Shown: in pieces, positions 6,985-23,902 of the stretch | Layout of the letters: every line of letters begins with the position of its first letter | Numbering within the stretch: the stretch's first letter is position 1 | Source of the DNA: Candidatus Woesearchaeota archaeon | GTDB taxonomy: Archaea; Nanobdellota; Nanobdellia; Woesearchaeales; 21-14-0-10-32-9 | Length of the DNA stretch: 37,694 bases | NCBI GenBank assembly: GCA_007131205.1 | Contig: SLQZ01000062.1 | Coordinates: forward strand, 1 to 37,694 | Direction of reading: 5' to 3' | Position numbers and translations under genes: made by a program | Notes under the pieces: model-generated | The model's input: the letters and a program-made list of their open reading frames with translations, nothing else | What the model was told of the DNA's origin: nothing | The model's database searches: none

Positions 6985-6988
6985 AGCT

Positions 6989-7300: not shown

Positions 7301-7473
7301 TAAAACACCGCTTAAAAACGCATATATTTCATATAAATACATTATCCAGGTTTAAATATTTTATGGGTTAGGCAAAGCAAGATTTATAAATGAACAGGTT
7401 CTCCTGGGGAGTGGTTGATGTGGCGGGTTGCTTCGCTGAAAACCTAGAATAACAATAATGGAGGCAAAGAAAA

Positions 7474-8043: not shown

Positions 8044-8057
8044 CCATTTCTTTTTTC

Positions 8058-8216
8058 TTAGTTTTCTTCTGTGTATTGCCGTTCCAAGTAATCGTTGTAC
8101 TCCTGTTCGGGCAAAGAAACTATTTCCCTGTAAACGGTGACTTTAGCGCCGCAGTTCAACTTCCTAACCACTCTTTGGACATGTATGTCATGCAACTCAA
8201 CCAACCCCCTAACCAT
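8058..8216 (-). CDS. Possible small ORF (52 aa), unknown function
   Basis: Hand translation gives MVRGLVELHDIHVQRVVRKLNCGAKVTVYREIVSLPEQEYNDYLERQYTEEN*. It is co-oriented downstream of DUF655. No clear SD. Below the ORF-track cutoff. Confidence 0.25.
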   Translation of the reverse strand: MVRGLVELHDIHVQRVVRKLNCGAKVTVYREIVSLPEQEYNDYLERQYTEEN

Positions 8217-8257
8217 AACGTTAGCACTACATGTTTATATGTTTTAATGAAGAAAAA

Positions 8258-8818
8258 TCACCTGCCAACAAACAAGTAATGCTTTTCCTTGCCGCTAAGC
8301 TCTTCAAATATCCTCTTAGCAATAATTTTTTCGGGGTTAGAAATAAGCTTGACCCGCTTCTTCACGTCTTCAAATGACTTGAAAGGCTCTTCTTTTCTTT
8401 GCTCTACTATCTCCACCATGTGCTTCTTGCCAACACCTGGAAGGAGCTCAATGATATGCATCCTCGTATTTAGAGGCTGGGCAGTGTTAAAAAAATTGAC
8501 GAACCTCGCCTCTTGCTCCTTAACAAGAACTATTATTGCGTGCTCAAGCTCCGACTTGGCTGTGCTGGTAAGCCTGTCAAAATGGAGCTTCCCGTTAATA
8601 TGATGGATCTTATCCCTTTTAGATTCCCCTATGTAAACATTCTCCAAGGGCTGCAAAAAAATTCCTTTTTTAGGCACGAGTTCCAATAAGACAAAGCTGC
8701 TCGTCCCTATTGCTTGAGCAATGGGCTTCTTGAGATGAGACGGAGTAGGGTCTGAGGCGTAGCCGTTAACAAGAAAATCCAGTACTATAGCTGTTTCCTC
8801 TTTTCTTCTTTGCATCAT
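8258..8818 (-). CDS. DUF655-family protein (OB-fold plus helix-hairpin-helix; conserved archaeal partner of rpoF/L21e)
   Basis: VLDFL..GY; ELLPGVGKKHM HhH motif. Canonical archaeal gene order L21e-rpoF-DUF655. Confidence 0.65.
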   Translation of the reverse strand: MMQRRKEETAIVLDFLVNGYASDPTPSHLKKPIAQAIGTSSFVLLELVPKKGIFLQPLENVYIGESKRDKIHHINGKLHFDRLTSTAKSELEHAIIVLVKEQEARFVNFFNTAQPLNTRMHIIELLPGVGKKHMVEIVEQRKEEPFKSFEDVKKRVKLISNPEKIIAKRIFEELSGKEKHYLFVGR

Positions 8819-8858
8819 ATTGAAACCCCCTCAAAACAATTATTTATTACCATGCAAG

Positions 8859-8866
8859 TTTATAAA
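8859..8866 (-). promoter_or_regulatory. TATA box (TTTATAAA) upstream of the DUF655 gene
   Basis: Palindromic TTTATAAA about 44 nt upstream of ATG 8818. GAGGGGGT SD lies between them. Confidence 0.4.
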
Positions 8867-8904
8867 TTTTGTGAAAACACCTTTTTTTAAGAACTTAGCA
8901 AGCC

Positions 8905-9252
8905 CTACTTCCTATAATCCTTAACAGCCTTCACAATATTAGCCATGTTCTCCTTGCTAACTGTTAAGGCATACCCCTGAAGTACCAAGCTTAAATCCTC
9001 TACTGAAACAGGCAGCAAATCAACTATTTTAACTATGTGCTCATCTTTAAGCCTTGGAACGTTTAAGTCCTCGAGCTTCTTCTTAAGCTCCGCACAGGCA
9101 GTCTTGCTCAATGAAGAAAAAGAGTTAACATAATCCTGTGTCTTGCCAGCCCTAAAACTTAGTTCGCCATCCCTCTTTGAGACGAGGGCTATCTCTGCCT
9201 TTAACTCTGATAATGATAACGGCTTCTTCTCAATTATTTCAATTCTTGACAT
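8905..9252 (-). CDS. rpoF: DNA-directed RNA polymerase subunit F (Rpo4)
   Basis: ~115-aa protein in the conserved position between L21e and DUF655, with the pattern LS.SE.K......R.....F.....T..Y...F. ATG 9252 with upstream AAGGTG. Confidence 0.65.
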   Translation of the reverse strand: MSRIEIIEKKPLSLSELKAEIALVSKRDGELSFRAGKTQDYVNSFSSLSKTACAELKKKLEDLNVPRLKDEHIVKIVDLLPVSVEDLSLVLQGYALTVSKENMANIVKAVKDYRK

Positions 9253-9275
9253 AACACCACACACCTTTTCTTGCC

Positions 9276-9563
9276 TTAAAGCCTTTTCAAATGCACAGGA
9301 TGAACCAAGACTTTCTTCTCCTTGCCTAAATCCATTACTTTAATTTCATAGCAAGACCCTTTCTTGGAGCCTACAACACCTGTTTTTCCGATGAACCTCG
9401 GGTGATAAGTGCCTTCGTGGACAGCGGGCTCAACAGTTAAGGCCACCCGGTCGCCCTGCTTAAACTCTGCTAAGTAATTCTTAGCGCTTATCTTGCCTCT
9501 CCGCTTACTTGACTTGGTAAAAACGGATGATGTCTTCCTCCTAGGGCCTCCTACTCTTGCCAT
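9276..9563 (-). CDS. rpl21e: Ribosomal protein L21e (eL21)
   Basis: From internal ATG 9563: MARVGGPRRKTSSVFTKSSKRRGK...FKQGDRVALTVEPAVHEGTYHPRFIGKTGVV...YEIKV. The upstream part of the 141-aa ORF is an Arg-rich read-through overlapping L11. Confidence 0.85.
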   Translation of the reverse strand: MARVGGPRRKTSSVFTKSSKRRGKISAKNYLAEFKQGDRVALTVEPAVHEGTYHPRFIGKTGVVGSKKGSCYEIKVMDLGKEKKVLVHPVHLKRL

Positions 9564-9576
9564 TTTATTATACCTA

Positions 9577-10305
9577 TCACTTCTTCTGTGCGGGCTTCGC
9601 ATCCGCAGGGGCTGCTTGTTTTGGCGCAACCTTATTAATAATTTCTTCTGGGATGCCCGCTGCTTCCATTGCCTTCCTAGCCTGGTCCGGCTTATCCTCA
9701 TGCTCCTTTAATATTCCTTGGGCAGCCTTCTCGAACTGAGCCCTCTTAGCCTCAAGCTCTTGCTGCATTTTCTTCCTTTCTTCCTCTAACTCTTTTTGCT
9801 CTTCAGCAGTAATCTCGGTTTTCTCTTCCTTGATTTCCTTATCAAACCTGCCTTGCTCCACAAGGGTTATAGCCTCTGCTGCTGGCACTTCCTCAACCTT
9901 AACGCCGAGTGACCTGCAGGTTCCAATTACTTCTTTTACCTTTTCCTTGAGCGTTTTTCCTGTAAGCGAATCCTCTTTCATCTTTGCAATCTTTATTACC
10001 TGCTCTATCTTCAAGTCACCCACAAAATCTGTTTGGGGCCTTCCAGAGCCTTTATCAACGCCAGCCTCTTTTTTTACAAGAGCTGAAGCAGGCGGGGTTC
10101 CAATGGAAATATTATATTCTTTAGTATCAGAATCAACGGTGACCTTAACAGGAACCTGCATTCCCTTAAAGCTGCCGGTTTTCTTGTTAATATCAGCAAT
10201 AACTTGCCCGATATTTACACCTAGCGGCCCGAGCGCAGGGCCTAGAGGCGGAGCAGCTGTTGCCTTTCCTCCCTCTATTAATACGTCTACTGATGTTGAA
10301 GCCAT
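9577..10305 (-). CDS. rpl11: Ribosomal protein L11 (uL11) with ~80-aa charged/Ala-Pro-rich C-terminal extension
   Basis: GGKATAAPPLGPALGPLGVNIGQV..IN..T..FKGMQVPVKV...GTPPAS. The core ends near aa 160, then EEKTEITAEEQKELEEERKK...APKQAAPADAKPAQKK. Confidence 0.9.
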   Translation of the reverse strand: MASTSVDVLIEGGKATAAPPLGPALGPLGVNIGQVIADINKKTGSFKGMQVPVKVTVDSDTKEYNISIGTPPASALVKKEAGVDKGSGRPQTDFVGDLKIEQVIKIAKMKEDSLTGKTLKEKVKEVIGTCRSLGVKVEEVPAAEAITLVEQGRFDKEIKEEKTEITAEEQKELEEERKKMQQELEAKRAQFEKAAQGILKEHEDKPDQARKAMEAAGIPEEIINKVAPKQAAPADAKPAQKK

Positions 10306-10366
10306 CTTTCATCTCTCCGTGTATGCCGGAATAACAATTTATTTATAAAGCTTTCTCAGGAGAAAA

Positions 10367-10942
10367 CTATTCATCCCTTCTTATAACTTTGACTGCATCC
10401 ATTTTAAGGGTGATTGGAATAGGAACTGCGGCTTCTAATAACTCAACAACCACTTCTTCCTTAGCCTTGTCCACCCTCGTAATCTTGCATTGCTCCCTCT
10501 TAAAGGGGCCGCTAATGATTTCAGCAATATCATTTTTCCTGATGTTAACATCTTTCTTAGCCTGCTCAAGCATATGCTCGATTTCGCTGTATGAAACTTC
10601 GTTAGGCAGCAAGCCCCTTGCGTACGGAACACCGTATGAAGCCTGCTCAGCGTCACTTCTAGAGTCTGATTCTAGGAATATGTACCCTCTCATGCCATGA
10701 GGCCTGATAACGGAATGAACACCTACTTTCTTTCTTGTTACGTTGCTTGAAACGAAGCTCATAACCTGGTCTTCCCTGTTAGCGGTAACCCTCAATGCGA
10801 ATATCTTCGTGTTGATATCTTGCTTCTCATCAGATTCCTTGCCTTGATTTTCTTCTTTGGATTCCTCTTCATCCATCTCCTTAATCCTTTGAAGCTCTTC
10901 TTCATCTGGCTTGTTCTTCTTAAGTATTTTTTCATCATCCAT
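10367..10942 (-). CDS. spt5: Transcription elongation factor Spt5 (NusG) with acidic N-terminal extension
   Basis: IFALRVTANRED (NGN domain), GYIFLE, and a KOW region (IAEIISGPFKREQCKITRVD). ATG 10942. The first ~45 aa are D/E/K-rich. Confidence 0.85.
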   Translation of the reverse strand: MDDEKILKKNKPDEEELQRIKEMDEEESKEENQGKESDEKQDINTKIFALRVTANREDQVMSFVSSNVTRKKVGVHSVIRPHGMRGYIFLESDSRSDAEQASYGVPYARGLLPNEVSYSEIEHMLEQAKKDVNIRKNDIAEIISGPFKREQCKITRVDKAKEEVVVELLEAAVPIPITLKMDAVKVIRRDE

Positions 10943-10969
10943 TTTTATTGCCTCAAACCCCAAAAAAAA

Positions 10970-11230
10970 TTATTTTTTTATGAAAAGGAAAAAAACCACT
11001 AGTGAAATAACCGTAACAGCAACAATCATTATGCCTACGCCGTCGCTAAACCAACTATCGCCGAGCTCTTTAGCCATATGCAGCAAGAACCCTATTAATC
11101 CAATGAAAGCTATGCCTATCCCTGAAACTTTCACTATTGTCTTGTACTCTTCCCTTGTCGGCTTCTTCGTTACACGCAGAACCCTTCTTGATTCTGTTAC
11201 GAAATTCTTAAATCTTTCAGCATAACTCAT
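10970..11230 (-). CDS. secE: Preprotein translocase subunit SecE (Sec61 gamma) with an extra C-terminal hydrophobic segment
   Basis: RVLRVTKKPTREEYKTIVKVSGIGIAFIGLIGFLLH matches SecE. Conserved ftsZ-secE-spt5-L11 order. Start ATG 11230 or 11239. Confidence 0.75.
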   Translation of the reverse strand: MSYAERFKNFVTESRRVLRVTKKPTREEYKTIVKVSGIGIAFIGLIGFLLHMAKELGDSWFSDGVGIMIVAVTVISLVVFFLFIKK

Positions 11231-11255
11231 TTTTATCATCCACAATAATTAATTT

Positions 11256-12356
11256 TTAGTCTACAAATGTTATTCCGAGCTCAGATTCTGCTTCTTTCCT
11301 CTTGTTAGTTTCTGATTTTGCAAAGCCCCCAGCGATTATCTGGCTGGATTTCACGCCGGTAACAACAATCATAACTTTTATGGAGCCTTCTAAGTCATCT
11401 GAAATCTGTGCTCCCCAAATCATCCTTGCATCTTCGTCAAGCTTCTCAGATACTTTTTCTACTACTTTTCTCGCTTCCTCTAAAGTCATGTCGTTGCCGC
11501 CAGCAACGTTTATCAGTGCGCCATTAGCACCTGTGATATCGACGTCAAGCAAAGGATTGTTTATTGCTTTCTCCACGGCTTCAACGGAGCGGTTATCCGA
11601 ATCAGATTCCCCAACTCCTATCAATGCTACGCCTCCATCACCCATGACAGTCCTGATATCTGCAAAGTCAAGATTGACAAGGCCTGCCTTCGTGACGAGT
11701 TCCGCAACGCCCTTAACCGCGTTAGTCAGTATTTCGTCTGCGATCTTAAAAGCTGTATGCAATGGCAGGTCCGGTGCAAGCTCTAAGAGCTTATCATTCG
11801 GTATTACTATGAGTGTATCAACATTTTTCTTTAGTGAGTCCAATCCCATTATCGCGTTTTCGTACCTTCTCTGGCCTTCCATCTTAAAAGGAATTGTTAC
11901 TATCCCCACGGTTAGAGCTCCTGTTCTTTTGGCCATTTCGGCAACTATTGGTGCTGAGCCCGTTCCGGTTCCTCCACCTAAGCCGCATGTTATGAATACC
12001 ATATCTGCACCGGCTATTGCCTGCTTTATGTCATGCTCGGATTCACGTGCGGCTTCTTCGCCGAGCTTAGGGATTCCTCCCGCGCCCAATCCTTTGGTGG
12101 TATCCCTTCCTATGAGTATCTTCCTGTCAGCTGACGTGTAAAGCAGGTCCTGGGCATCCGTGTTTATGCCTACGGTCTCCGCGCCAACTATACCTATTTC
12201 GGTTATCCTGTTTATGGTGTTATTCCCGCCTCCGCCGCAACCGAACACTTTTATCTTGGCTTTTTGCTTGCTTAAGAGCTCTTCCAGCTCTGCGTCAAGC
12301 GCATTGTTCTTGCTTTGTACGTCGGCTCCTTTTACTTCTTTAATAGTATAGGTCAT
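11256..12356 (-). CDS. ftsZ: Cell division GTPase FtsZ
   Basis: [24 protein letters not shown] (tubulin signature), NDKLL. Confidence 0.95.
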
Positions 12357-12428
12357 TGATTAACCCTCCTTAGTTTTGCTGAAAGGCTTTTCCCCTTCGC
12401 CTTAATGATTTTTTGTGCATCTGAATAT

Positions 12429-13145
12429 TTAAACTTTGTTATTCTCTTTAGATTCTTTCTTCTTCTCTTCTTTGCCTTTAGCTTTGAACTCTGCTTCAAT
12501 GCCCAAAATTCTCTTTATGTCTTCACTGAGCATTTTAAGGTATTGCTCCGGGATTTCTTGTAGTAGTGTTATTACTGCTTTTCCTTCTTTTGCTTCTGCT
12601 TTTTCGTAAGGAATCCTAATGATGTCAAGAATTGACTTTACTTTTTCTTCGGTATCCTCTATTTTTTTCTTTATGTTTAAGTCGTAAACCACTTCTTTTC
12701 CTGCTAAAGGATGGTTAAAATCCACTATTACCCTTCCTCCGCTTACATTCCTCACAGTTCCGAGTTGGTTGTCTATGTTTAGCTGCAAGCCTATGTATGG
12801 CTGAATATTTTGCTTTTTAAAGACGTTCATAGGTATTAATTTTAGCTGCTTTGGGTTCTTCTTGCCGTAAGCTTCGTCAACAGAAAGCTTTACCTCGTGC
12901 TTGCCAAGAGTAAGGCCTTCAAGCTTTTTGTCAAGGCCGGAAAGAACGTGTTTTTCTCCTACGCAGATCTTTATGGGCTTGTACTCTTCCTCGTGGCTAT
13001 GGTCATAAGACTTGTCAGGGCTGTGTTCGTGTACGAGGCCTGCTTTTTCAGCTTCTTTTAAAATAGTGGTGTCGTAAACTTGGTTGTCATCAGCAGTCCT
13101 GGCTGTGTACTCGAGCTCTACGAAGTCGCCTTTTTTTATCGTCAT
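12429..13145 (-). CDS. FKBP-type peptidyl-prolyl cis-trans isomerase (long archaeal SlyD/FKBP26-like) with K/E tail
   Basis: KKGDFVELEYTAR, GLDKKLEGLTLGK, VDFNHPLAGKEVVYDLNI. Confidence 0.8.
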   Translation of the reverse strand: MTIKKGDFVELEYTARTADDNQVYDTTILKEAEKAGLVHEHSPDKSYDHSHEEEYKPIKICVGEKHVLSGLDKKLEGLTLGKHEVKLSVDEAYGKKNPKQLKLIPMNVFKKQNIQPYIGLQLNIDNQLGTVRNVSGGRVIVDFNHPLAGKEVVYDLNIKKKIEDTEEKVKSILDIIRIPYEKAEAKEGKAVITLLQEIPEQYLKMLSEDIKRILGIEAEFKAKGKEEKKKESKENNKV

Positions 13146-13407
13146 TAGTCTTCCTCTTGTTTTCCCTGGCTGAAGGCTTCAAGCTGGCTGCCGTTAAACC
13201 TTTCAGAGAGAATTGGGCTTTTGTTAGAGGATGGACTCGACGGCGTTTTATAAATGTTTCGAATTAGGGTTTAGATAGGATATTTGCTCTTCATTAGTTG
13301 TTTTTTGAAAGGTCAATTTTTTCCGGTTTCTTCCGTTGTTTTTCCGGTTTCCTCTTCGGAATTATTTTTAAGCAGTTTGATTCTTCTTATTGAGGAGGTT
13401 GATAATC

Positions 13408-13839
13408 ATGAGTATAGATTCATATTTGAAATCAAGGGCAGAAGAACTAAGAGGTCTTGCGCTGTCAAAGGAAGGTACAGATATGTATTTGGTTATAGAT
13501 AGCCTTGCAAGAATGTACGAATCCAGAAATAAAAACAGCAAAGATAACATGGTTTTGGCGGATTCTTCAAAGAATTTTTACAACACCATAAGATTCATCG
13601 AGGAATACTTACTTGACAATAATAGGGATAACGACTATTTAGAGTCTCGTATCAATCTTTTAGAGGAACTTCCTGGAATCGGAAAAGGCAATAGTTTCGG
13701 CTTTCTAATATTTTACAATTTACTATCAGGAAATATTAAGAAGAAAGATGACAAAAAAGACGAATACGCATGTGTAAACGATATTGAAAACATAGTAATA
13801 AATGAAGAAATAAGGAAAATGACAGGTAAACCGGCTTAA
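13408..13839 (+). CDS. Hypothetical protein with a helix-hairpin-helix-like LPGIGKG motif
   Basis: ATG 13408 is preceded by GAGGAGGT. LLEELPGIGKGNSF resembles an HhH motif. No family recognised. Confidence 0.4.
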   Translation: MSIDSYLKSRAEELRGLALSKEGTDMYLVIDSLARMYESRNKNSKDNMVLADSSKNFYNTIRFIEEYLLDNNRDNDYLESRINLLEELPGIGKGNSFGFLIFYNLLSGNIKKKDDKKDEYACVNDIENIVINEEIRKMTGKPA

Positions 13840-13890
13840 AATTGTTTTTAATTGTAAAATTATTTATACCCTGTGCTTTTCTCCTGTGGT

Positions 13891-14856
13891 ATGGATGAGG
13901 ATAACAGCCAAATAGATTACCTTAAGAATGAGCTTAAGCCGTTGTTCGTGGAGCACTACAAGGAATTATTAGGAAATGAATACGAGGAATTCGTAAGGGC
14001 TTCTTCTGAGTACCAGCGCAAAGCGGTAAGGGTAAATACTCTTAAGAAAAGCGTTGAAGAAATAAGGGAGCGGCTAGAGGAAAAATGGGTTCTTGAACAA
14101 GTGCCGTGGTGCGCTGAGGGCTTTTGGATGAAGTACAGGGACGGGAAAAGGTTTGATATTGGGAATACGCCGGAACACCAATTAGGCTACATCTACGTCC
14201 AGGATGCAGCATCAATGATACCTGTAGAAGTGTTGAATCCTTCTCCTGGAGACATAGTACTGGATATGTGCGCAGCCCCAGGAAGCAAGACAAGCCAGAT
14301 AGCGCAGAAAATGGGTAATAAAGGATTGCTTGTTGCAAATGACGCGGACGGGAAAAGGCTGGGTGCTCTCGGGATAAACTTGCAGAGAATGGGAATTCAT
14401 AATTCTATGATTACAAGAATGGAAGGATTCCACGTGAAAAAACAAGGGGAGGGCTTTGACAAAATACTCGTAGACGCTCCATGCACAGGAACAGGGACTA
14501 TAATGAAAACTTATAAAGTCATCGGGATGTGGAGCCACTCATTAATTGACAGGATGAAAAGAATACAATATAAGCTTGCAAGCCACGCATTCACGTTGCT
14601 AAAGCCAGGCGGAACCATGGTTTATAGCACTTGCACTTTAGAGCCAGAGGAAAACGAAGGAGTAATCACAAAGCTATTAAAAAAACATCCTGAAGCTGAA
14701 CTGCTAGATATAAAATTCAGCGGAAAGAAAAGCCAGCCCGTTACAGAGTTTAAAGGAAACAAGTATGATCCAAACGTAAAAAAATGCTTAAGAATCCACC
14801 CACAGGATAACGGCACAGAAGGATTCTTCGTGGCAAAAATAAAGAAAAACAATTAA
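13891..14856 (+). CDS. RNA (tRNA/rRNA) cytosine-C5 methyltransferase, NOL1/NOP2/Sun family
   Basis: DMCAAPGSKT (SAM motif I), ILVDAPCTGTG (motif IV, PC), YSTCTLEPEENE (motif VI, TC). Confidence 0.85.
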   Translation: MDEDNSQIDYLKNELKPLFVEHYKELLGNEYEEFVRASSEYQRKAVRVNTLKKSVEEIRERLEEKWVLEQVPWCAEGFWMKYRDGKRFDIGNTPEHQLGYIYVQDAASMIPVEVLNPSPGDIVLDMCAAPGSKTSQIAQKMGNKGLLVANDADGKRLGALGINLQRMGIHNSMITRMEGFHVKKQGEGFDKILVDAPCTGTGTIMKTYKVIGMWSHSLIDRMKRIQYKLASHAFTLLKPGGTMVYSTCTLEPEENEGVITKLLKKHPEAELLDIKFSGKKSQPVTEFKGNKYDPNVKKCLRIHPQDNGTEGFFVAKIKKNN

Positions 14857-14903
14857 AAATCCCGAACAACTCACAAATAAACAGAAAACAGATGTGAAAA
14901 AAA

Positions 14904-15539
14904 ATGGTTTTAGCAAAAATCATCATCGGATTATTCTCAATAGCAATTCTGTACATAACCACCATTTTTTTACTGTCAAGACTATTCATACCAAACATAG
15001 GGTTTAAGAGAAAAATCAAAGAAAAACTGCCAAGAGACGCAAAGAAAAAGCTTATAGAAATAAAAAAATCCTCGAAGAACAAGAAAGAAGCCCTAAAAAA
15101 AGTAATAGACTACCAACTATCCATTTTTTACTCGGAGATGAGACAAGCCTTCCCCAGGTTCAAATTCTTATTCGAATCAAGCTTTAACAAATTATGGAAA
15201 AAGAAAGGATTCTTGCACTGCCACCAACAAAACTTTGTACTGCGAAGACTATTACTAGGAACAAAGATGTTTGAGGAGAAAGACATCAAGCTAAAGCACA
15301 CATTCTGCTACCTAAACATACACCAATACCTAAAAATAAATATAGGCAAAAAGAAAAAAGAATGGATAAACGTAGACGCGTTCGCGATGAGCTTAGGCTA
15401 CAATTTAGGAGAAGTGTTGCCTAATTTTGCTTATCCAAGCATGAAAGCACGCGGGATAAACCCGTTACGAGACCCAATAAAAAGCAAGAAAATACTCGAA
15501 AAAACCACAATGCTCTCACTATTCCTGAAAAATAAATGA
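14904..15539 (+). CDS. Membrane-anchored protein with possible transglutaminase-like (Cys-His-Asp) core
   Basis: N-terminal TM (IIIGLFSIAILYITTIFLL). Then GFLHCHQQNFVLRRLL ... NIHQYLKI ... WINVDAF, with spacing compatible with a C-H-D papain/TGase-like triad. Weak, by eye only. Confidence 0.35.
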   Translation: MVLAKIIIGLFSIAILYITTIFLLSRLFIPNIGFKRKIKEKLPRDAKKKLIEIKKSSKNKKEALKKVIDYQLSIFYSEMRQAFPRFKFLFESSFNKLWKKKGFLHCHQQNFVLRRLLLGTKMFEEKDIKLKHTFCYLNIHQYLKINIGKKKKEWINVDAFAMSLGYNLGEVLPNFAYPSMKARGINPLRDPIKSKKILEKTTMLSLFLKNK

Positions 15540-15937
15540 AAAAAAAACATGTATTGGAAGGAGAATACATAATTTACGAGTACGGAACACAAGACTATAC
15601 TGGTGAAGGATGGGCATTAGCACTCTACAAGCTGGAAGGCAATGAATTACAAGAAATATACCATCCTGTAGATAATGAGAGCGAGCCAAGCAACATAGGC
15701 GAGCAAAACATAGAAGAACTGATAAATGTTATGATAAAAAAAAATATTAGAAAAGTCTACACGGTGTTTCACCTACAAGAATTCTACAGAATCCCCAGTA
15801 ACTGGTTTAGCCTACAAGAACAAGACACAGAAGAAATAGAGTTATGGGCAGAATACAAATCCATAGAAAAAGATGGCTATGAGCACCAAAGGTTAAAAGA
15901 AAACGGAATAGAACTGCTCTTCCACGAAGAAAAATAA
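15536..15937 (+). CDS. Hypothetical acidic protein, no recognisable domain
   Basis: 133-aa ORF. ATGA overlap with the upstream gene; the stop directly abuts the downstream ATG. Confidence 0.4.
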   Translation: MKKKHVLEGEYIIYEYGTQDYTGEGWALALYKLEGNELQEIYHPVDNESEPSNIGEQNIEELINVMIKKNIRKVYTVFHLQEFYRIPSNWFSLQEQDTEEIELWAEYKSIEKDGYEHQRLKENGIELLFHEEK

Positions 15938-16303
15938 ATGAATATGAAAGCCCTATCCTTAAAACAGCCATACGCAGAACTCGCAGTAAGCGGAAAGAAA
16001 ACAATAGAATTAAGAAAATGGAATACAAGTTTCCGAGGAGAATTCTTAGTGCACGCATCAAAGCAACCAGACAAAGAAGCAATGGAAAAATTTGGCTTTA
16101 AAGAATTGCCATTAGGAGCAATCATAGGGAAAGCAGAATTGGTAAGCGTGAAGAAATATGAGAACGAAGAAGAATTCGAAAAAGACAAAGACAAGCACTT
16201 AGCCACGAAAAAATATGGTGTGTATGGATTCATACTAAGAAACGCAAAGAAAACAAAGCCAATACCCGCAAAAGGAAAACTAGGATTTTGGAAATATGAA
16301 TGA
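15938..16303 (+). CDS. ASCH (PUA-like) domain protein
   Basis: ALSLKQPYAELAVSGKKTIELRKWNTSFRGEFLVHAS...LPLGAIIGKAELV matches the ASCH N-terminal signature (SIKQPWA..I..G.K..E.R). Confidence 0.65.
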   Translation: MNMKALSLKQPYAELAVSGKKTIELRKWNTSFRGEFLVHASKQPDKEAMEKFGFKELPLGAIIGKAELVSVKKYENEEEFEKDKDKHLATKKYGVYGFILRNAKKTKPIPAKGKLGFWKYE

Positions 16304-16329
16304 ATAATAGTTTGAAGACAAAACAAAAT

Positions 16330-16527
16330 CTACGACATCATTTTAGCCAGAAAAAACCACACAACGGTAACAAAAAAAATAGCAAAAAGTGCTACCACTA
16401 ATTCCCAAGCTTTATTCTTAAACTTTCCTTCGAGCTTTTTAGAGATAAACTGACCTACTAATAGAATCATACCAGCAGTCACGCCTGCAATTACGCCCGG
16501 AAATAATGTTTCAAAAAACCCCATCAA
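16330..16527 (-). CDS. Small membrane protein (2 TM), unknown function
   Basis: 65 aa, two hydrophobic helices, co-oriented downstream of the DpnA-like methyltransferase. Confidence 0.35.
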   Translation of the reverse strand: MMGFFETLFPGVIAGVTAGMILLVGQFISKKLEGKFKNKAWELVVALFAIFFVTVVWFFLAKMMS

Positions 16528-16562
16528 GTTAGTATTAAAACTACACTTATAATTTTTGCGGA

Positions 16563-17342
16563 TTAGTTCAATGTGCTTTTCAGCCTTCTAACGCTTAACT
16601 TCAAGTAATCTTCTTCTTTATCTATGCCGATGTACTTTCTTCCGTGCATGCTTGCGACCAGTCCTGTTGTTCCTGAGCCGTTGAAAGGGTCCAAAACAAC
16701 ATCTTTTTCGTTGGTGCTAGCCAGGACTATTCTTTTTAGTAGCTCTATCGGTTTTTGTGTTGGGTGTTTGCCTGATTTCTTTTCTTGCATCGGGGTTAAA
16801 GGAATTTTCCATATACTTCGCATTTGTTTTCCTTTCGGGCTTATATCATCGTGCCATTCTTTCATTTCTTTATAATTGAAAGTGTGCTTTGCTTTCTTGT
16901 CTTTTTTAGCCCAAATAATGGTTTCATGGGCGTGGGCGAAGTATCTGCAGGAGAGGTTTGGAGGCCCGTTTGGCTTAAACCACGAGATTTCGTTTAAAAT
17001 GTGAAATCCTAATGCCTGTAACGCATGCCCTACTTTGTATATGCTATGAGGAGTGCCTGAAATCCATATTGTTCCGTTAGGTTTTAAGAGTTCTCTGCAG
17101 TGTTTTAGCCAGGAATAAGTGAATTCGTAGTCTTTCTGGAAGCCATTTGATTTATCCCAGTCTCCCTTGTTGACAGAAACCATTTTTCCTGCTTTGCATG
17201 TTATTCCGCCGTTGGATAAATTATAAGGAGGATCTGCAAATATCATGCTTACCGAATTCTTCCTGATTTTTGGCAATACTCCGAGGGAATCTCCTTTGAT
17301 TAGCATGAAATTCTTGTCTTTGAAGAATGGTTTAATAGTCAT
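16563..17342 (-). CDS. Beta-class DNA N6-adenine methyltransferase, DpnA/M.MboIB-like
   Basis: Motif IV before motif I: IFADPPYNLSNGG ... GDWDK ... NGTIWISG ... PNLSCRYF ... GKHPTQKP ... VLDPFNGSGTTG. From memory it is collinear with S. pneumoniae DpnA. Confidence 0.85.
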   Translation of the reverse strand: MTIKPFFKDKNFMLIKGDSLGVLPKIRKNSVSMIFADPPYNLSNGGITCKAGKMVSVNKGDWDKSNGFQKDYEFTYSWLKHCRELLKPNGTIWISGTPHSIYKVGHALQALGFHILNEISWFKPNGPPNLSCRYFAHAHETIIWAKKDKKAKHTFNYKEMKEWHDDISPKGKQMRSIWKIPLTPMQEKKSGKHPTQKPIELLKRIVLASTNEKDVVLDPFNGSGTTGLVASMHGRKYIGIDKEEDYLKLSVRRLKSTLN

Positions 17343-17440
17343 GTAATGCTAAGAATCATACTTGTTTATATTTGTTGTGTGGACTTGTCCAGTGCATCTT
17401 TCAGGTTAACCGGAAGATTTACGAAAAAAATGGGAAAATA

Positions 17441-17450
17441 TTTATATTTA
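17441..17450 (+). promoter_or_regulatory. TATA box (TTTATATTTA) about 26 nt upstream of ATG 17472; suggests a leaderless or short-leader transcript for the orphan ORF
   Basis: AT-rich element read directly. The spacing to the ATG matches archaeal TATA-to-TSS distance. Confidence 0.4.
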
Positions 17451-17471
17451 TTTAAAAAGGATGATACCATT

Positions 17472-18089
17472 ATGAATCGCCAGGAACTATTTGAAATTGT
17501 TAAAAATCTTGAGTTCGATAAAAAAATAAGTATTATAGAGGAGAATGGTGTTGAATTATACTTATTGAGGCCTTCTGTACTCCCTAAATCTCTTAAAAAC
17601 AAATATGATGTAAATAAAAATTTTCAGATATGGGTTAAAGAAGGGGAGCGAGAATTCAGACCGAATCATCTTCGTTTAATTATCGACTTAAATCTTAGAG
17701 TCAGGTCTAATCCTGAATTAAAAAATAAGTTACTCTTAGCAATGGACAATATTTTTTATGGGGAAGATGTTGAGAAAGAAATATCTTTGTTAAACAAGGA
17801 AAAATTCCAACATTACCTTAACCCATTGAGAATAATAGCATATATGGCCTTGCTCTTTTTGATAGAACAAGAATATAACTATACGGGAGAAAGTAAGTAC
17901 GATCCGAAAACCTTGTTTTTGCAAGGTTGGATACGGGAAAGCATTGATAGCCCAAAGGAATTAGACAACATGTGCATGAGTATAGCTAACGGGCAACCCC
18001 CAAAAGCCAAATATACTTGTAAGGAAAATAAAAAACATAAGAAATACGAAGAAAAAAGAAAAGAGTTGTGGTATCTGGAAGATCAATAA
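17472..18089 (+). CDS. Orphan protein between the two methyltransferases; candidate restriction endonuclease of unrecognised family
   Basis: 205 aa from ATG 17472; the ORF is open from 17346. No DpnII-family, HNH or GIY-YIG signature is visible. The only weak PD-(D/E)XK-like string is IIDLNLRVRSNPELK. The 3' end overlaps the Dam-like gene by 7 nt (convergent). Confidence 0.4.
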   Translation: MNRQELFEIVKNLEFDKKISIIEENGVELYLLRPSVLPKSLKNKYDVNKNFQIWVKEGEREFRPNHLRLIIDLNLRVRSNPELKNKLLLAMDNIFYGEDVEKEISLLNKEKFQHYLNPLRIIAYMALLFLIEQEYNYTGESKYDPKTLFLQGWIRESIDSPKELDNMCMSIANGQPPKAKYTCKENKKHKKYEEKRKELWYLEDQ

Positions 18090-18910
18090 TTAGTTACTAC
18101 AACCTCGTCTATTTCTCCCCTTCCTTTAGCGTCGCTGTTAATACTTCTCCTGGCTTTTACTTTCCTAATATTATATCCTTTGTACAGTTTATGGATTAGT
18201 TCGCTGTCGCTGTTGCTAAGCATTACTTTGCAGCCTTTTGCATCTAGCTTCATGAAAACTTCTGCTAATCTGACCTGGTCTTCCCGGCCAAAATCCAGGT
18301 CGGTGTAACTAGTGAAATTATTCTTTTTGAAAGGCCAATATGGAGGGTCGAGATAAACAAAGTCGCCTTTCTTAGCTGTTTCAAGGACTTTTTTGAAGTC
18401 TTGAGCTTTTGCCACAACATTTTTTAGTAAATGACTTGCTTTTTTCAGTGTTTCTTCTCTGACAATCTCAGGGTTTTTATAACTCCCTATGGGTACGTTA
18501 AATTCGTTTTTCGAGTTCACCCTAAACAATCCATTGAAACACGTCCTGTTCAAATAAAGGAGTAAAGCTGCTTTTTTCAAAGAGTCTTTTTCCTTGTTAT
18601 AAGCATTTCTAGCTTCGTAATAATAATCTTTTGAGTGATTTTTAGCATGTATTCTTAGGAGTTTTATTAGCTCTGAGAGGTTATCCCTTATCTGGACGTA
18701 TAGATTTATGAGTTCTGAGTTGTAGTCGGATAAGAAAATTTTTTTTGGATTAAATTTTTGTTTTACGTGGAAGAATACTGCTCCACCGCCTACGAATGGC
18801 TCGCGGTATACTTCTATGTTTTCTGGGTAGAACTCTTCGAATTTGGAGAGTAACTGTTTTTTACCCCCTGCCCACTTTACAAACAACGGAATCTCAACCC
18901 CCATAAACAA
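18083..18910 (-). CDS. Alpha-class DNA adenine methyltransferase, Dam/DpnM family
   Basis: KWAGGKKQLL, EPFVGGGAVFF, FNGLFRVNSKNEFNVP, GDFVYLDPPYWP, VMLSNS, VVTNY. From memory it is collinear with DpnM/Dam. Confidence 0.9.
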   Translation of the reverse strand: MFMGVEIPLFVKWAGGKKQLLSKFEEFYPENIEVYREPFVGGGAVFFHVKQKFNPKKIFLSDYNSELINLYVQIRDNLSELIKLLRIHAKNHSKDYYYEARNAYNKEKDSLKKAALLLYLNRTCFNGLFRVNSKNEFNVPIGSYKNPEIVREETLKKASHLLKNVVAKAQDFKKVLETAKKGDFVYLDPPYWPFKKNNFTSYTDLDFGREDQVRLAEVFMKLDAKGCKVMLSNSDSELIHKLYKGYNIRKVKARRSINSDAKGRGEIDEVVVTNY

Positions 18911-18973
18911 TTACTAAAAGCCTCGTAAATATAAGGTTTTTCTTTGTGGAACAAAAAAACAGAATAAGCGTAT

Positions 18974-19411
18974 TTACTTCCTTGCTTTTTCGACTTTTCC
19001 TCTTAGCAATGCGTTTAGGGATTGGTCGTTTACTTTTATGACTTGCCAGCGTACGCCTGGGATGTCTCCCTTGCTTCTGCCCATGCTTCCACCCATGCAT
19101 TCTATGACGACTTCGTCGTGCTCATCCACCATTTTCTGGGCTCCGTCACCTGGAAGGAAAGCTGTTACTTGCTTGCCGTTCTTAACAAGTTGGACACGGA
19201 CACATTTTCTCATAGCTGAGTTTGGCTGTTTTGCCTCTCTTTGAACTTTTTCAAGTACGATTCCTGAGGCTTGGCTTGAGCCTTCAAGAGGGTCTGATTT
19301 TAAGGCTAATTTAAGGACTTTCTTGGCGTACCACTTGTCTTTCTTCCTGGACTCGCTTCGCCTACTAGTAAGTTTTTTTCCTGCGTTCAATCCTGATGAT
19401 TTCTTGCTCAT
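18974..19411 (-). CDS. rps12: Ribosomal protein S12 (uS12)
   Basis: [33 protein letters not shown]. Confidence 0.95.
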
Positions 19412-19421
19412 ATTTTCACCG

Positions 19422-19841
19422 TTATATTACCTTGATTTCTTTTAATGGAAAGTATTTCCTCACGATTTCCTCGTAGTTCCTCAGGTTTTGCGCTCGGGCG
19501 CCGATCATAAGGCCTTTGGTTTTCGCGTCAGGGCCTTTAATCGTGACGATTTCGTCTTCTTCCTGCATATCAACTATTTTTAAGGGGAACATAAGGTTCC
19601 TTATAAATGTTAGCTTGTCAGGGCTGAACTCGACTATTTTAATCTTTCTATTGACTGCTCTCTCAACTTTTTCTATGTTAGACTTCTGCTTGCCAAGCGC
19701 GCGCCCCATTTCCCCGGGCTGGACAACAAAAACAATCTTGTCCTTGTTAAAAAAGCAGTCTTTTAATCCTGCACCCGTTATTTTTTCGAATAATGACATT
19801 AGGTTCAGGAGTTCAGCATCATATTTTATCTTCATTTGCAA
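19422..19841 (-). CDS. nusA: Transcription termination/antitermination factor NusA (archaeal two-KH form)
   Basis: ~139 aa. [17 protein letters not shown] and [13 protein letters not shown] are KH GXXG-type loops. Conserved position between L30e and S12. Confidence 0.85.
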
Positions 19842-19855
19842 TTAAACCCAAAAAA

Positions 19856-20119
19856 TTATTTTTTTACGCCTATTACAGATACCAGGAAAGGCTTCCCGCA
19901 AATAGTTCCAAGCTCTTCATTATTAACGTCAAGGGCGTGCACTTCTACGCCACCAATTTTCTTGTAGTATTCCAAGTCTTTCTTTGCCTCAACCTCGGCA
20001 TTTGAGGACACAAAAACCTTTGCTAACTCACCTTTCCTGAGAAGCTTTAAAGTCCTGTCCGTGCCGATAATTATTTTATCTGTGTTCAAGAGTTTTCTTA
20101 TTTCATCAATCACAATCAT
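19856..20119 (-). CDS. rpl30e: Ribosomal protein L30e (eL30)
   Basis: KIIIGTDRTLKLLRKGELAKVFVSSN ... LGTICGKPF. Conserved position after rpoA''. Confidence 0.85.
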   Translation of the reverse strand: MIVIDEIRKLLNTDKIIIGTDRTLKLLRKGELAKVFVSSNAEVEAKKDLEYYKKIGGVEVHALDVNNEELGTICGKPFLVSVIGVKK

Positions 20120-20131
20120 TCACCTTTAGCT

Positions 20132-21280
20132 TTATTTTGACTTAGTTCGAACTATTAAGCCAGGCAAGCCTGTACCTATTGGAACTGGCTGGTTCAGCAT
20201 AACGTTTTCTATGACGCTGTTCAACGGGTCAGATTCTCCTGTGAGGCCTGCGTTGATAACATGCTTGATAGGTGTCTCGAAGGAAGCCCTTGCAAGCACG
20301 GAAGGCTTCTCCTTAACAATACCATACCTGTTAATGCCCATGATCTTCCCTGACATGCACATAGCGTCTGCAACTATCATGATATGCCTGATGTCAACGT
20401 TCAATCCTTGTTCCTCGATGACTTTCATTAATTCATTTATTATGAGCTGCCTCGCTGCCTCTATGCCGAATTCTTTCTCAATCTCATATATGTTATTAGT
20501 ATATGTCCTTTCCTTGTCTACGAAGTCAAGAGACAAGACTTCTCTAAGGTTAGAGCCTGACGTTACAATCATGAACTCATCATCCTTCTTTACAGGGAGG
20601 ACTTGCTTGATTCCTTTCACGCCGTGAATATAAACATTTTTGAGCTTCTCTTTCAGCTTATAAAGCTGAATAATATCTTTGTCCTTCCCAGACTGTATTA
20701 CTGATATGGACTCGTCTTTTTCAAGCTTAAAAGAAAATCCCTTAACGTTTTTTCTCAGTGCTTCCGTAACGGATGAATGAGTAAGCTTTAGCAATTCAAG
20801 CTTATCTTTGTCAAGCACAATTTTAAGGTTTGCCTCAGAAATATTAACGATTACTTCTTTCAGGAAGTCTTTCATGGTAAGCTCTTTCAGGGATTCAGCG
20901 ATGCGCTTTATATCCTTTCCTTCGCTGTATGGCTTAACTAAGTGAATATTCATAAGCTCAGTAGAAATAGTTTTTCTCCCGTCAAGAACTTCGATAAGCC
21001 TTGGAAGGCCAGTGGTAACGTTCATCTCTGCAACCCCTGCGAAATGGAAAGTGTTCAGTGTCATCTGTGTGCCTGGCTCACCAATGCTTTCAGCGCTTAC
21101 AATCCCAACGCATTCCCCGGGAACTGCCAGCGATGAATTATACTCTGCCTCTATTGCATCCATGATTTTCTTAAGCTTCTCCTTGCTAACACTTGCAGGA
21201 AGATTCGCTTCCACTTCAGCAAGTATTGAATTCGGAATCTTATCCTCGTATTCCCTTAGCGCCTCTTTAACATCAACCAT
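20132..21280 (-). CDS. rpoA2: DNA-directed RNA polymerase subunit A'' (Rpo1C)
   Basis: [29 protein letters not shown] ... SFETP. ATG 21280 is preceded by GAGGT. The track start at 21301 is a TTG. Confidence 0.95.
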
Positions 21281-21290
21281 TTTCAGTACC

Positions 21291-23891
21291 TCATTCCTCA
21301 AAAGAATCTATTATGCCCTTAACATTTATCTTTCCTGCTTCCGTCTTTGAAACGTCTAAGCCATCTTCACCATAGTTAAACTGCACGATTTTCTTGGAAG
21401 CATCCCTAACCGTGAAATCATACTCTAGCTTTAAGTCTTGCATCGCATTTGCAAGCCTCCTGTAAAGGTAACCAGACTTAGGAGTCCTAAGAGCGGTATC
21501 CATCAGGCTATCCCTTCCGGTCATCGCCATAAAGAACATTTCGTAAGGCTTCAAGCCATACTTAAACCCGTTCCTGATGAATCCCCTGGGGACTGCGCCC
21601 AAGTCATTTTTCTTAAAGCAAGACAAAGACCTTCCCTTAAAGCCTTTTCCAATCCTTCCGCCTCGAAGGGCTTGCTGACCTACACAAGCAGCCATCTGAG
21701 CAATATTGATAGTGTTGCCTTTCGCACCTGATCGTACCATAATCATAGTATTGCTGTTCTGGGGGGATGACAACTCAACGATTTTACCCGACTCATTCCT
21801 TGCCTTGTTAAGCCTTTCCAGAATTCTGAGCTCCAAAGTTTCCTCGATGCTCCTCCCAGGAAGCCTTTCCAAAGTACCAGCGTGGAAATCCCCAATAATT
21901 TTCTTAACATCTTCATCTGCCTTATCAAGCGTCTCCGTGACTTTTTGCAATGCTTCTTCGCTTAAGTCAATATCTGAAAGCTTAGATGTAAAGCCGTACT
22001 TAAGAAGAACTTCTGCGCCCAACCCGTTAATCTTCCTCAAAAAAACAATTATTTCATCTGCGCCGTACTTCTTATGAAGGTTCCTTAATAATAATCCTGA
22101 GCCTTCCCCAAGGTTAGCAGAATCCATAACGCCTGATACAAGCTTTCCATTCGTAATCTTAACCACTGAGTCAGGGTCCTCGGGGTCCCTGTTAAAAATC
22201 CTGGACTTGCCAACAAAGCTAAAATCGTCAGGCAGGATAACAGAAAAGACTTCTTTGCCCGTAACATACTTCTTGTTCGGCAGTTTCTTGAAGTCATCTA
22301 TGCCTGCCGCGGACAATAAATCAACAGCAGCATCCCTAGTAATCTTAAAGCCTTCCCTTGTAAGAATGTAGTTGCCGGAAATGCTGTCCTGAATGCAAGC
22401 TATAATGCTCAACCCATACCTAGGGCTGATTATCTGGGTTTGAACCTGCATTAAAATTTCTGCTTCAGCCCTTGCCTCCTCTGTTTGTGGAATATGAAGG
22501 TTCATCTCATCCCCGTCGAAGTCAGCGTTGTACGGAGCACAAACAGCGGGGTTAAGCCTAAGAGTCAAGCCTGGAAGGACTTTTACGCGGTGGCACATCA
22601 TGCTCATCCTGTGAAGGCTAGGCTGCCTATTGAACAATGCAATATCACCGTCCATCAAGTGCCTCTCAACAATGAAACCCGGCTGGATTTCTTCCAGCAA
22701 CTGCTCCTTTGTCTCGTTAGTAATCCTTTTTCTCTTGCCATCAGGCCTTATAATATAATTAGATCCAGGGTATTGGTCAGAGCCTCTCTCAAGGAATCCT
22801 TTTAAGTACTCCAAATTCCACTCAGTAACCCTTTCAGGAACAGTCAATTTCCTCGCAATTACTTCAGGAACCCCGACTTCATTAATATCTACTTTTGGGT
22901 CTGGGCTTATAACTGTCCTCGCAGAAAAATTAGTCCTCTTACCAGCAAGATTCCCACGAATCCTTCCTTCCTTGTTCTTTATCCTTGCTGTTAAAGTATT
23001 CAATGGCTGCCCACTCCTATGCCTAGCAGGCGGAAGCTGGGCTACCTCGTTATCGAAAAAAGTGGTAACGTGATACTGCAACAAGTCCCATAAGTCTTCA
23101 ATAATAATCTCTGGGGCACCAGCATTAATGTTTTCAAAAAGCCTTTGGTTAATCCTTACAATATCGCCTAGCTTATGCGTAAGGTCATCTTCGCTCCTCT
23201 CCCCGCTTTCAAGGGTAATGCTAGGCCGCATCGTAACAGGTGGTATAGCAAGCACTGTTAAAACCATCCATTCAGGCCTCGCATTCTTCGGGTCAAGGCC
23301 GAAAATCTTCAGGTCTTCATCTGGAATCCTCTCAAGCCTAGCCCTGACTTCTATTGGGGAAATCCTTTTATCATTCTCAATAAAGGAAGTTGGCTTCTCA
23401 ATAGATATCTTATACTGCTTCTCCTTGCAATAAGGGCACTTATTAATAGTCCTAAGGCTTGCAATGATAAGCTTAATCTTGTCCCTTCTCTCAATCAAGC
23501 CCTGCTCCAATCCCACTTTATCCAACAAATCGCGATATTCCTTTATCTTATCCTGAGGAATAAGTATCCTGCCACAACTCCTGCACGTGCTCCTTAACAA
23601 ATCCAGCACTACATCAACGAAGCTTATATGAATAACAGGCCTTGCAAGCTCCATATATCCAAAGTGGCCTAGGCTATCCCTGAGCTTCTGGCCATCAGTC
23701 TTGCACCTCAACCCAGGATCAATAACTCCTAAGCGCACATCCATTAACCCGCCGTCAACAGGGTAGCCTTCCTTATCGTAAAGTTCGGGCGTGACAATCT
23801 TAGCCTTCGCAATGCTTTTCAAGAGCTTAGGAGATATTACCCCAAAATCTATAGACTCAATGTATTTGTATATCGCTTTTTGATTATCCAT
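21291..23891 (-). CDS. rpoA1: DNA-directed RNA polymerase subunit A' (Rpo1N)
   Basis: [12 protein letters not shown] catalytic motif, zinc-binding Cys clusters, 866 aa. Confidence 0.95.
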
Positions 23892-23902
23892 TCGATCACC
23901 TT

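Follow-up and report, generated by a model that had tools for sequence, protein, structure and literature searches.

Three contiguous genes between rsmB/F and rpS12 in a woesearchaeal genome: probably the outcome of successive insertions and not a single system

Three open reading frames (ORFs) occupy positions 14904-16303 of the forward strand of contig SLQZ01000062.1 from a Candidatus Woesearchaeota archaeon (GenBank assembly GCA_007131205.1). The whole stretch of 37,694 nt that was analysed is called the window in the following, and the genome to which it belongs (G000) measures 0.93 Mb and is 99.9% complete. Its size and the Woese-, Pace- and Nanoarchaeota labels of the nearest homologues point to an archaeon of DPANN type. 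ORF1 encodes a small membrane-anchored protein with putative transglutaminase-like features, ORF2 an acidic orphan protein and ORF3 an ASCH protein. The stop codon of ORF1 and the start codon of ORF2 overlap as ATGA (15536-15539), and the TAA of ORF2 abuts the ATG of ORF3 (15935-15940); both junctions are present in the sequence as a preliminary description of this DNA had reported. That description regarded the three genes as one module, concerned either with RNA modification or with defence. Comparison with related loci leads to a different interpretation: the three genes are very likely not one system and were assembled by successive insertions at a variable spot between ORF1 and the gene for ribosomal protein S12 (rpS12).

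The triplet ORF1-ORF2-ASCH is confined to the window and to contig L007, a near-identical sequence from another run (99.98% identity over 5247 bp), and the closest relative has neither ORF2 nor ASCH; therefore, the three genes do not form a conserved module. The partners are also absent where the single genes are found elsewhere, namely at 80 loci with ASCH, about 25 with ORF1 and 5 with ORF2. The preliminary description had itself allowed that the idea of a module would fall if the genes were not conserved together anywhere else, and essentially this was found by the co-occurrence analysis. In the 80 ASCH loci, no homologue of ORF1, ORF2, the small membrane ORF, the methylases, the ORF between the methylase genes or RsmB/F (all in Table 1) occurs within 5 kb. 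Two further close ASCH homologues have neighbours that were read from their sequences as Orc1/Cdc6-like and NUDIX-like genes, and among the 82 ASCH loci besides that of contig L106 (see below) none has ORF1, ORF2 or methylases nearby. In addition, the 20 more distant ORF1-family loci carry no RsmB/F, ASCH, ORF2 or methylase gene within the available flanks, and homologues of ORF2 (L008, L009 and L103-L105) are never adjacent to ORF1, ASCH or R-M (restriction-modification) genes.

The interval between ORF1 and rpS12 was observed in three states. In the empty state, which is seen in L001 (genome G001), L108 and L095, ORF1 is followed directly by rpS12. Among long contigs, L001 carries the best-matching ORF1 homologue (81% protein identity) and has the same synteny as the window, in the order FtsZ, FKBP, two small ORFs, RsmB/F, ORF1, rpS12, NusA-like protein, L7Ae and RpoA''. 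By blastn, positions 13314-15544 of the window correspond to positions 4433-6641 of L001 and positions 18972-24925 to positions 6650-12636, and L001 has 8 bp between the stop codons of ORF1 and rpS12 in place of window positions 15545-18971. The DNA identity in the ORF1 region is 84%, and the alignment runs to 15544. L095 belongs to another genus of the same family, and its RsmB/F and ORF1 genes overlap by 4 nt. The intermediate state is seen in L106, a contig of 1151 bp, in which ORF1 is followed 3 nt on by ASCH and then by rpS12, and this interval contains no ORF2, membrane ORF or methylases. L106 and the window share 85.6% DNA identity in ASCH, 86.8% in rpS12 and 73.6% in ORF1, and the protein identities are 82% for ASCH and 63-66% for ORF1. 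The full state, namely ORF1-ORF2-ASCH followed by the methylase cassette, is found only in the window and its near-identical copy L007. ORF1 identity groups the window with L001 and L108/L107 at about 80% and leaves L106 outside at about 65%. The ORF1 homologue of L106 (positions 3-479) ends in ...GERLPRFA and lacks the basic C-terminal tail of about 35 residues that is present in the window protein; because of this, the tail may be dispensable or may have been replaced on the arrival of ASCH. The GC content was also considered as a marker of insertion and was rejected, since the island (0.29-0.41) shows no contrast with its AT-rich surroundings.

The features of the locus are collected in Table 1. 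As the preliminary description stated, an RNA 5-methylcytidine (m5C) methyltransferase gene stands directly upstream; it encodes RsmB/F, as judged from PF01189 and TIGR00446, and is separated from ORF1 by a gap of 47 nt on the same strand. The R-M cassette that was placed directly downstream does contain two type II methylase genes, but a small membrane ORF on the minus strand, which had been overlooked, intervenes between them and the triplet. This membrane ORF lies downstream of the beta-class methylase gene in the same direction, and ORF2 and ASCH are transcribed convergently to both. The 205-aa (amino acid) middle ORF between the two methylase genes has no match in Pfam, NCBIfam, PADLOC or PHROG. 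Further genes in the window include those for FtsZ, a NusA-like protein, L7Ae/L30e and RNA polymerase subunits.

Table 1. Genes and sequence features around the three ORFs; positions are those of the window (aa, amino acids; pI, isoelectric point).
Feature	Position	Strand	Remarks
RsmB/F (NOL1/NOP2/Sun) RNA m5C methyltransferase	13873-14856	+	PF01189 E 4.4e-54; PF17125 E 8.6e-23; TIGR00446 287 bits (cut-off 210)
ORF1	14904-15539	+	211 aa; N-terminal hydrophobic helix; family without annotation
Left copy of 14-nt direct repeat	15527-15540	+	ORF1/ORF2 junction
ORF2	15536-15937	+	133 aa; pI 4.7; orphan family
A9 homopolymer	15539-15547	+	directly 3' of ORF2 ATG
Variable stretch, 3.4 kb	15545-18971		ORF2, ASCH, small membrane ORF, two-methylase cassette
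Right copy of 14-nt direct repeat	15929-15942	+	ORF2/ASCH junction
ORF3, ASCH protein	15938-16303	+	121 aa; Pfam PF04266 E 5.9e-9, 37 bits (cut-off 21.2)
Small two-helix membrane ORF	16330-16527	-	64-65 aa; gene-called in L007 too; no family assignment
Beta-class N6/N4 DNA methyltransferase (CcrM/DpnA-like)	16563-17342	-	PF01555 E 1.2e-62; PADLOC MTase_II E 2.6e-99
205-aa ORF between methylase genes, candidate restriction enzyme	17472-18089	+	start per L007 gene call
Dam-family (alpha-class, GATC-type) DNA adenine methyltransferase	18083-18910	-	PF02086 E 6.6e-67; TIGR00571 310 bits
Ribosomal protein S12 (rpS12)	18974-19411	-	conserved right flank of variable spot, convergent; 99% protein identity in L106 and L108

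A footprint is found around ORF2. A perfect 14-nt direct repeat, GAAAAATAAATGAA, is present at 15527 and 15929 (families D3 and D7 of the repeat search; an exact 14-mer pair), and the spacing of 402 nt is the length of ORF2 including its stop codon. When ORF2 and one copy of the repeat are removed in silico, ORF1, ending in ...AAATGA, overlaps the ASCH start ATG AAT ATG AAA GCC. Moreover, the C-terminus of ORF2 (...FHEEK) is shorter than those of its two closest homologues (...FYEEPVKK...). The repeat and the early end of ORF2 fit an insertion of ORF2 into an existing ORF1/ASCH junction. A third, weaker copy of the repeat is located at the end of ASCH (16291-16306).

The start codons at these junctions deserve a comment. 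The sole difference between the window and L007 is a gap in the A-run after the ATG of ORF2, which is A9 in the window and A10 in L007 (452-461). The extra A shifts the ATG out of frame in L007, where the start called by the gene finder for ORF2 is an in-frame TTG (15554). The overlap of ORF1 and ORF2 therefore depends on the length of a homopolymer, and the A9/A10 difference may be either an assembly error or a genuine length-variable tract. As for ASCH, its homologues open with MKALSL, and for this reason the true start is probably M3 at 15944, 6 nt past the stop codon of ORF2; the first two codons in the window, ATG AAT, probably remain from the earlier junction.

The following history can be proposed from these observations. 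ORF1 belongs, with RsmB/F and rpS12, to a gene order that is conserved in the host family, and is not part of the insertion. ASCH would have arrived either in a common ancestor of the window and L106 lineages or through exchange between the two. It may be older at the site and have been lost in the L001/L108 lineages, or it may have moved between lineages via the conserved flanks, and both versions fit equally. We infer that ORF2 was then inserted exactly at the ORF1/ASCH junction, with which the 14-nt duplication is consistent, and that the small membrane ORF and the two-methylase cassette would have been inserted downstream of ASCH. The variable stretch was thus probably built in more than one step. 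The tight junctions are explained by where the insertions landed, and since the spacing is tight as a consequence of the landing site, transcription from RsmB/F through ORF1 probably extends into ORF2 and ASCH.

Several points weigh against the history of successive insertions. The overlap and the abutment would permit translational coupling. Loss of ASCH in the L001/L108 lineages is as parsimonious as its lateral gain, and ORF1 and ASCH are adjacent in two lineages, those of the window and L106, whose ORF1 proteins are only about 65% identical, so the pairing extends beyond a single strain and might have been selected for. The sequence of the 14-nt repeat is rich in A, and a mean of 0.46 such pairs per window is expected from Markov-2 simulations; because such pairs are not rare in simulation, the repeat is informative only by its position at both gene borders. 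Most of the comparison contigs are short metagenomic pieces. With respect to the proteins, the transglutaminase fold of ORF1 is drawn from a model built on 8 sequences and from Foldseek E-values of 0.011-0.25, with no support from Pfam or hhalign, and the natural substrate of ASCH in G000 is uncertain, as this genome has no known writer of N4-acetylcytidine (ac4C).

ORF1 belongs to a very small family. Eight matches were found among 5.8 billion proteins, and scans of whole genomes and metagenomes gave about 20 further, more distant members, some of which have no N-terminal helix, for example P0008 (source label Paceibacterota). Cys106, His140, Gln141 and Asp158 are invariant in all 25 sequences compared, some of which are only about 30% identical, and Asn110 is almost invariant. 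In the AlphaFold2 model (mean predicted local distance difference test score (pLDDT), 80.7; predicted template modelling score, 0.75), a hydrophobic helix of residues 2-28, in keeping with the N-terminal transmembrane anchor claimed earlier, is followed by a helical subdomain, a helix of residues 106-119 that opens with Cys106, and strands at 128-135, 138-146 and 154-157; His140 is carried by the second of these strands, and the third is immediately followed by Asp158. When this model was compared with the Protein Data Bank (PDB) by Foldseek, the matches ranked 1-10 were all of the transglutaminase fold (E 0.011-0.25, probability 0.57-0.99, template modelling score 0.33-0.45), including the transglutaminase 4XZ7, LapG, 3ISR, 3KD4, TglA, TgpA and chain H of the nucleotide excision repair complex 9PCP. 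None of them reaches E 0.001, though the matches are consistent.

In sequence comparisons, ORF1 has no match in Pfam, NCBIfam, PADLOC or PHROG; the 8 members gave nothing against Pfam even at E 10, and the family profile had no match among the PDB sequences. By hhalign, the ORF1 family and the Transglut_core regions of 30 relatives were aligned without significance (probability 1.2%, P 0.046), and the alignment was limited to HQY...VD of ORF1 and HAW...FD of Transglut_core. The earlier guess of a Cys-His-Asp triad in a transglutaminase-like protein thus probably holds at the level of the fold, from the invariant triad and the top ten structural matches, but not at that of sequence profiles. 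The order of the triad and its spacing (34 and 18 residues) are canonical for the transglutaminase-like superfamily, which includes PF01841, LapG, Pseudomonas aeruginosa TgpA and the putative proteases 3ISR and 3KD4, and the sequence motifs are similar to G-x-C-x-x-[FY] and H-x-[WY]-x-E-[VI]...W-x-x-x-D. However, the ORF1 proteins are much smaller (about 140-210 aa) and combine one N-terminal anchor with a helical N-terminal subdomain. With moderate confidence, therefore, a transglutaminase-like fold is assigned to modelled ORF1 at the fold level, and the family is not filed under PF01841. The protein is most likely a membrane-tethered Cys-His-Asp enzyme of transglutaminase/papain-like fold, namely a protease, an amidase or an acyl-transferase. 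Its predicted catalytic domain is probably cytoplasmic, because a segment with many Lys and Arg residues follows the anchor, which is missing from the bacterial homologues. ORF1 would thus add a small new family to a fold class already known, and this family is confined to a few DPANN-type archaea and Paceibacterota-type bacteria. Apart from ORF1, when G000 is compared with its relatives (L128-L157), 37 of 41 of these encode a Transglut_core (PF01841) protein, which in most of them is a conserved one of about 650-690 aa; G000 gives no PF01841 match at E 1e-5, and its congener G001 gives only a weak one.

ORF1 adjoins RsmB/F in the window, L001/L094, L002, L107, L095 and L096, and in L003 an RsmB/F gene lies about 2.5 kb from the ORF1 homologue on the opposite strand. 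This adjacency is synteny at the level of one archaeal family and is weak evidence for a functional link.

ORF3 was correctly recognised as an ASCH protein: the PF04266 match is above the cut-off and was also obtained in the whole-genome scan, the protein can be aligned with PDB entries, and the Lys/Glu/Arg residues are invariant. The PDB matches are Thermus thermophilus TTHA0113 (TthASCH) and the ASCH domain of human ASC-1, with E-values of about 6e-5, and only the N-terminal part aligns significantly. Tyr12, Lys21, Glu24 and Arg26 align to Tyr14, Lys23, Glu26 and Arg28 of TthASCH, the octapeptide being GKKTIELR, and Lys21, Glu24 and Arg26 are invariant in 28 homologues. The window protein resembles TthASCH (PDB 2DP9/1WK2) also in being a stand-alone domain of the same length (121 aa) with the aromatic Tyr12. 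Nineteen ASCH proteins including TthASCH are reported to remove ac4C from tRNA, with Lys23 and Glu26 in the 'GKER' octapeptide as essential residues (preprint 10.64898/2026.02.27.708502). The roles of the residues are taken from this preprint, Lys and Glu being catalytic and the aromatic residue holding the nucleoside in position. The helix-turn-helix (HTH) extension described for archaeal ASCH proteins in the same preprint is absent from the window protein, and Escherichia coli YqfB is a threonine-type relative of the 'GKER' ASCH proteins. Because Lys21, Glu24 and Arg26 are equivalent to the residues of TthASCH and invariant in the homologues, the window protein is most likely an ac4C amidohydrolase, predicted to act through a Lys21/Glu24 dyad on tRNA or on the free nucleoside. 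G000 has no match to TmcA (PF13718) or TmcAL (PF05636), and ASCH would therefore be an eraser without a known writer; it may act on scavenged material or on some other N4-acyl cytidine.

The homologues of ASCH number more than 2800, and the best 120 have 66-82% identity. They occur in metagenome-assembled genomes of Woese-, Pace- and Nanoarchaeota and, at 52-59% identity, in Nitrososphaerales and Micrarchaeota. The distribution is patchy: ASCH is present in 54 of the 401 genomes of the phylum and in 3 of the 41 relatives. In the DPANN-type loci the neighbours vary and include genes for an Obg/YchF-like GTPase and for leucyl-tRNA synthetase-like and metallo-beta-lactamase-like proteins, as read from their N-terminal sequences, and local synteny around ASCH is kept only in the Nitrosopumilus clade. 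Positions 83-206 of the 269 of phrog_3193, a family of unknown function, match ASCH with an E-value of 1e-36, and thus viruses of prokaryotes carry longer ASCH relatives.

For ORF2, the earlier statement that the protein contains no recognisable domain is borne out by the family libraries and by the PDB sequence search. It has no match in Pfam, NCBIfam, PADLOC or PHROG; 48 members of the family gave no consistent Pfam family, only scattered single matches, and the search of PDB sequences gave nothing below E 0.059. A word-indexed search returned 3 matches, that is, two homologues at 55-56% identity and a near-identical copy, and an exhaustive profile search found 69 representatives, mostly of 130-160 aa, in 1.84 billion clusters. 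The family is present in 4 of the 401 high-quality genomes of the phylum and in 2 of the 41 relatives, one of them marginal (E 0.009). Only Trp104 and Ile125 are nearly invariant, reaching 90%, and no acidic residue is conserved; an enzymatic role is therefore unlikely. The AlphaFold2 model (pLDDT 69) has the arrangement beta-beta-beta-alpha-beta-alpha-beta-alpha, which is an RNase H-like order of strands and helices, and the structural matches in the PDB and viral libraries are RuvC, RNase H and integrase cores. As these matches are weak (E at least 0.19, probability at most 0.41) and conserved catalytic residues are absent, an RNase H-like fold was considered and not assigned. The neighbours of the ORF2 homologues include a small HTH protein, a convergent gene whose C-terminal end was read from its sequence as NUDIX-like, a PLDc_N membrane peptide and a RIO/Bud32-like kinase. 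The small membrane ORF of L103 was considered as a shared partner of ORF2 and was rejected, since it encodes a protein of PLDc_N type and is arranged differently, and an ORF2-like domain in the giant proteins P0175 and P0188 was discarded, because these are repeat-rich surface proteins whose short matches look spurious. In L009 (1-92), a long perfect inverted repeat, ATAACAGACTATAAAAAATTACT...AGTAATTTTTTATAGTCTGTTAT, lies upstream of the ORF2 homologue and could be a terminator or the end of a mobile element.

Among the other explanations, the first is that ORF1 and ASCH form a functional pair, with ORF2 as a later passenger. ORF1, as a membrane-tethered Cys-His-Asp acyl-transferase or amidase, and ASCH, as an ac4C amidohydrolase, would then share a pathway for the turnover of acyl-cytidine or RNA modifications beside the m5C methyltransferase. 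ASCH follows ORF1 after 3 nt in L106, and the two would have been adjacent in the ancestor of the window as well, as is suggested by the ATGA overlap that appears when ORF2 and one repeat are taken out; furthermore, ORF1 stands beside RsmB/F throughout the family, and the genome has no canonical ac4C writers. However, none of the 82 ASCH loci outside the lineage has an ORF1 homologue nearby, and about 25 loci of the ORF1 family have no ASCH. Moreover, among the relatives searched, G005 has ASCH without ORF1, and G004, G008, G024 and G039 have ORF1 without ASCH. The two adjacent cases are related lineages at one locus and count as one event. Adjacency of ORF1 and ASCH in these two related lineages is the sole residual link among the three genes, and we regard a functional pair as very improbable.

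Next to be considered is the proposal that the neighbouring R-M island includes ORF2 and ASCH as accessory components, in which case ASCH would sense modified bases and acidic ORF2 would serve as a regulator or DNA mimic. Stand-alone ASCH proteins have been reported near archaeal type I R-M systems, and ASCH and EVE proteins in association with type I R-M or with (PIN)-GNAT-EVE operons (Bell et al. 2020, PMC7641849). The window resembles these associations in having a small ASCH gene beside DNA methylase genes in an archaeon, and ORF2, with its pI of 4.7, and ASCH lie inside one 3.4-kb stretch with the two-methylase cassette. In PADLOC, both methylases match MTase_II models and ASCH has a weak, domain-level match to the candidate system PDC-M11B (E 0.007, 47 residues), but neither ORF1 nor ORF2 matches any model. 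The window cassette, however, is type II-like and has no EVE, GNAT or PIN partner, and the reported association of ASCH with R-M genes (PMC7641849) is not reproduced in the 80 loci of the window ASCH subfamily, since none of them has methylases or the candidate nuclease within 5 kb. The cassette itself is similar to the DpnII/MboI/LlaDCHI-type GATC cassettes in that Dam-family alpha and beta N6/N4 methylases flank one gene; it differs from them in orientation and in the middle gene, which has no DpnII-family or nuclease signature, and in the 80 ASCH loci no such cassette includes ORF2 or ASCH. In addition, ASCH is present at the same site in L106 without any R-M gene, ORF2 homologues do not stand beside R-M genes, ASCH retains the catalytic Lys/Glu of the amidohydrolase subgroup, and ORF2 and ASCH are convergent to the beta-class methylase gene and the membrane ORF. 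What the locus offers for the earlier idea of a defence-island component is adjacency to the methylase cassette only, and an accessory role in R-M appears very improbable.

A bolder combination can also be imagined, in which ORF1 would be a new and very small transglutaminase/papain-like branch of ultra-small archaea and bacteria that joins ASCH in the turnover of acylated cytidine, such as host-derived acetylated nucleosides or tRNA in a symbiont without an ac4C writer, and ORF2 would be a new fold-level orphan recruited to the transcript; we consider this highly improbable. Scarcely credible, finally, is an operon in which RsmB/F and all three genes read and erase RNA modifications: the common strand, the 47-nt gap, the overlap and the abutment would suit it, as would the removal of ac4C from tRNA by ASCH proteins (preprint 10.64898/2026.02.27.708502), but the triplet is limited to one strain pair, the closest relative keeps RsmB/F and ORF1 without ORF2 and ASCH, and ORF2 has neither a nucleic-acid-related domain nor conserved catalytic residues. 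Of the earlier suggestion of a reader or eraser module linked to the NOP2/Sun enzyme, the eraser part fits ASCH by itself (preprint 10.64898/2026.02.27.708502), but the module does not hold, as the triplet is not co-conserved.

Assembly by successive insertions at one variable spot consequently remains the preferred interpretation, and the main value of the analysis is negative, in that a candidate for a new system is removed. ASCH is an ordinary member of a known family, and ORF2 is an orphan, whose family of about 69 sequence clusters has no assigned fold or function. ORF1 represents a compact Cys-His-Asp family lacking annotation, which merits a family model. Furthermore, a GKER-type ASCH protein in a genome without a detectable ac4C writer raises the question of its role in episymbionts. 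As regards gene order, the locus illustrates that tight spacing, and even the overlap of stop and start codons, can come from insertions at one variable spot of a streamlined genome.

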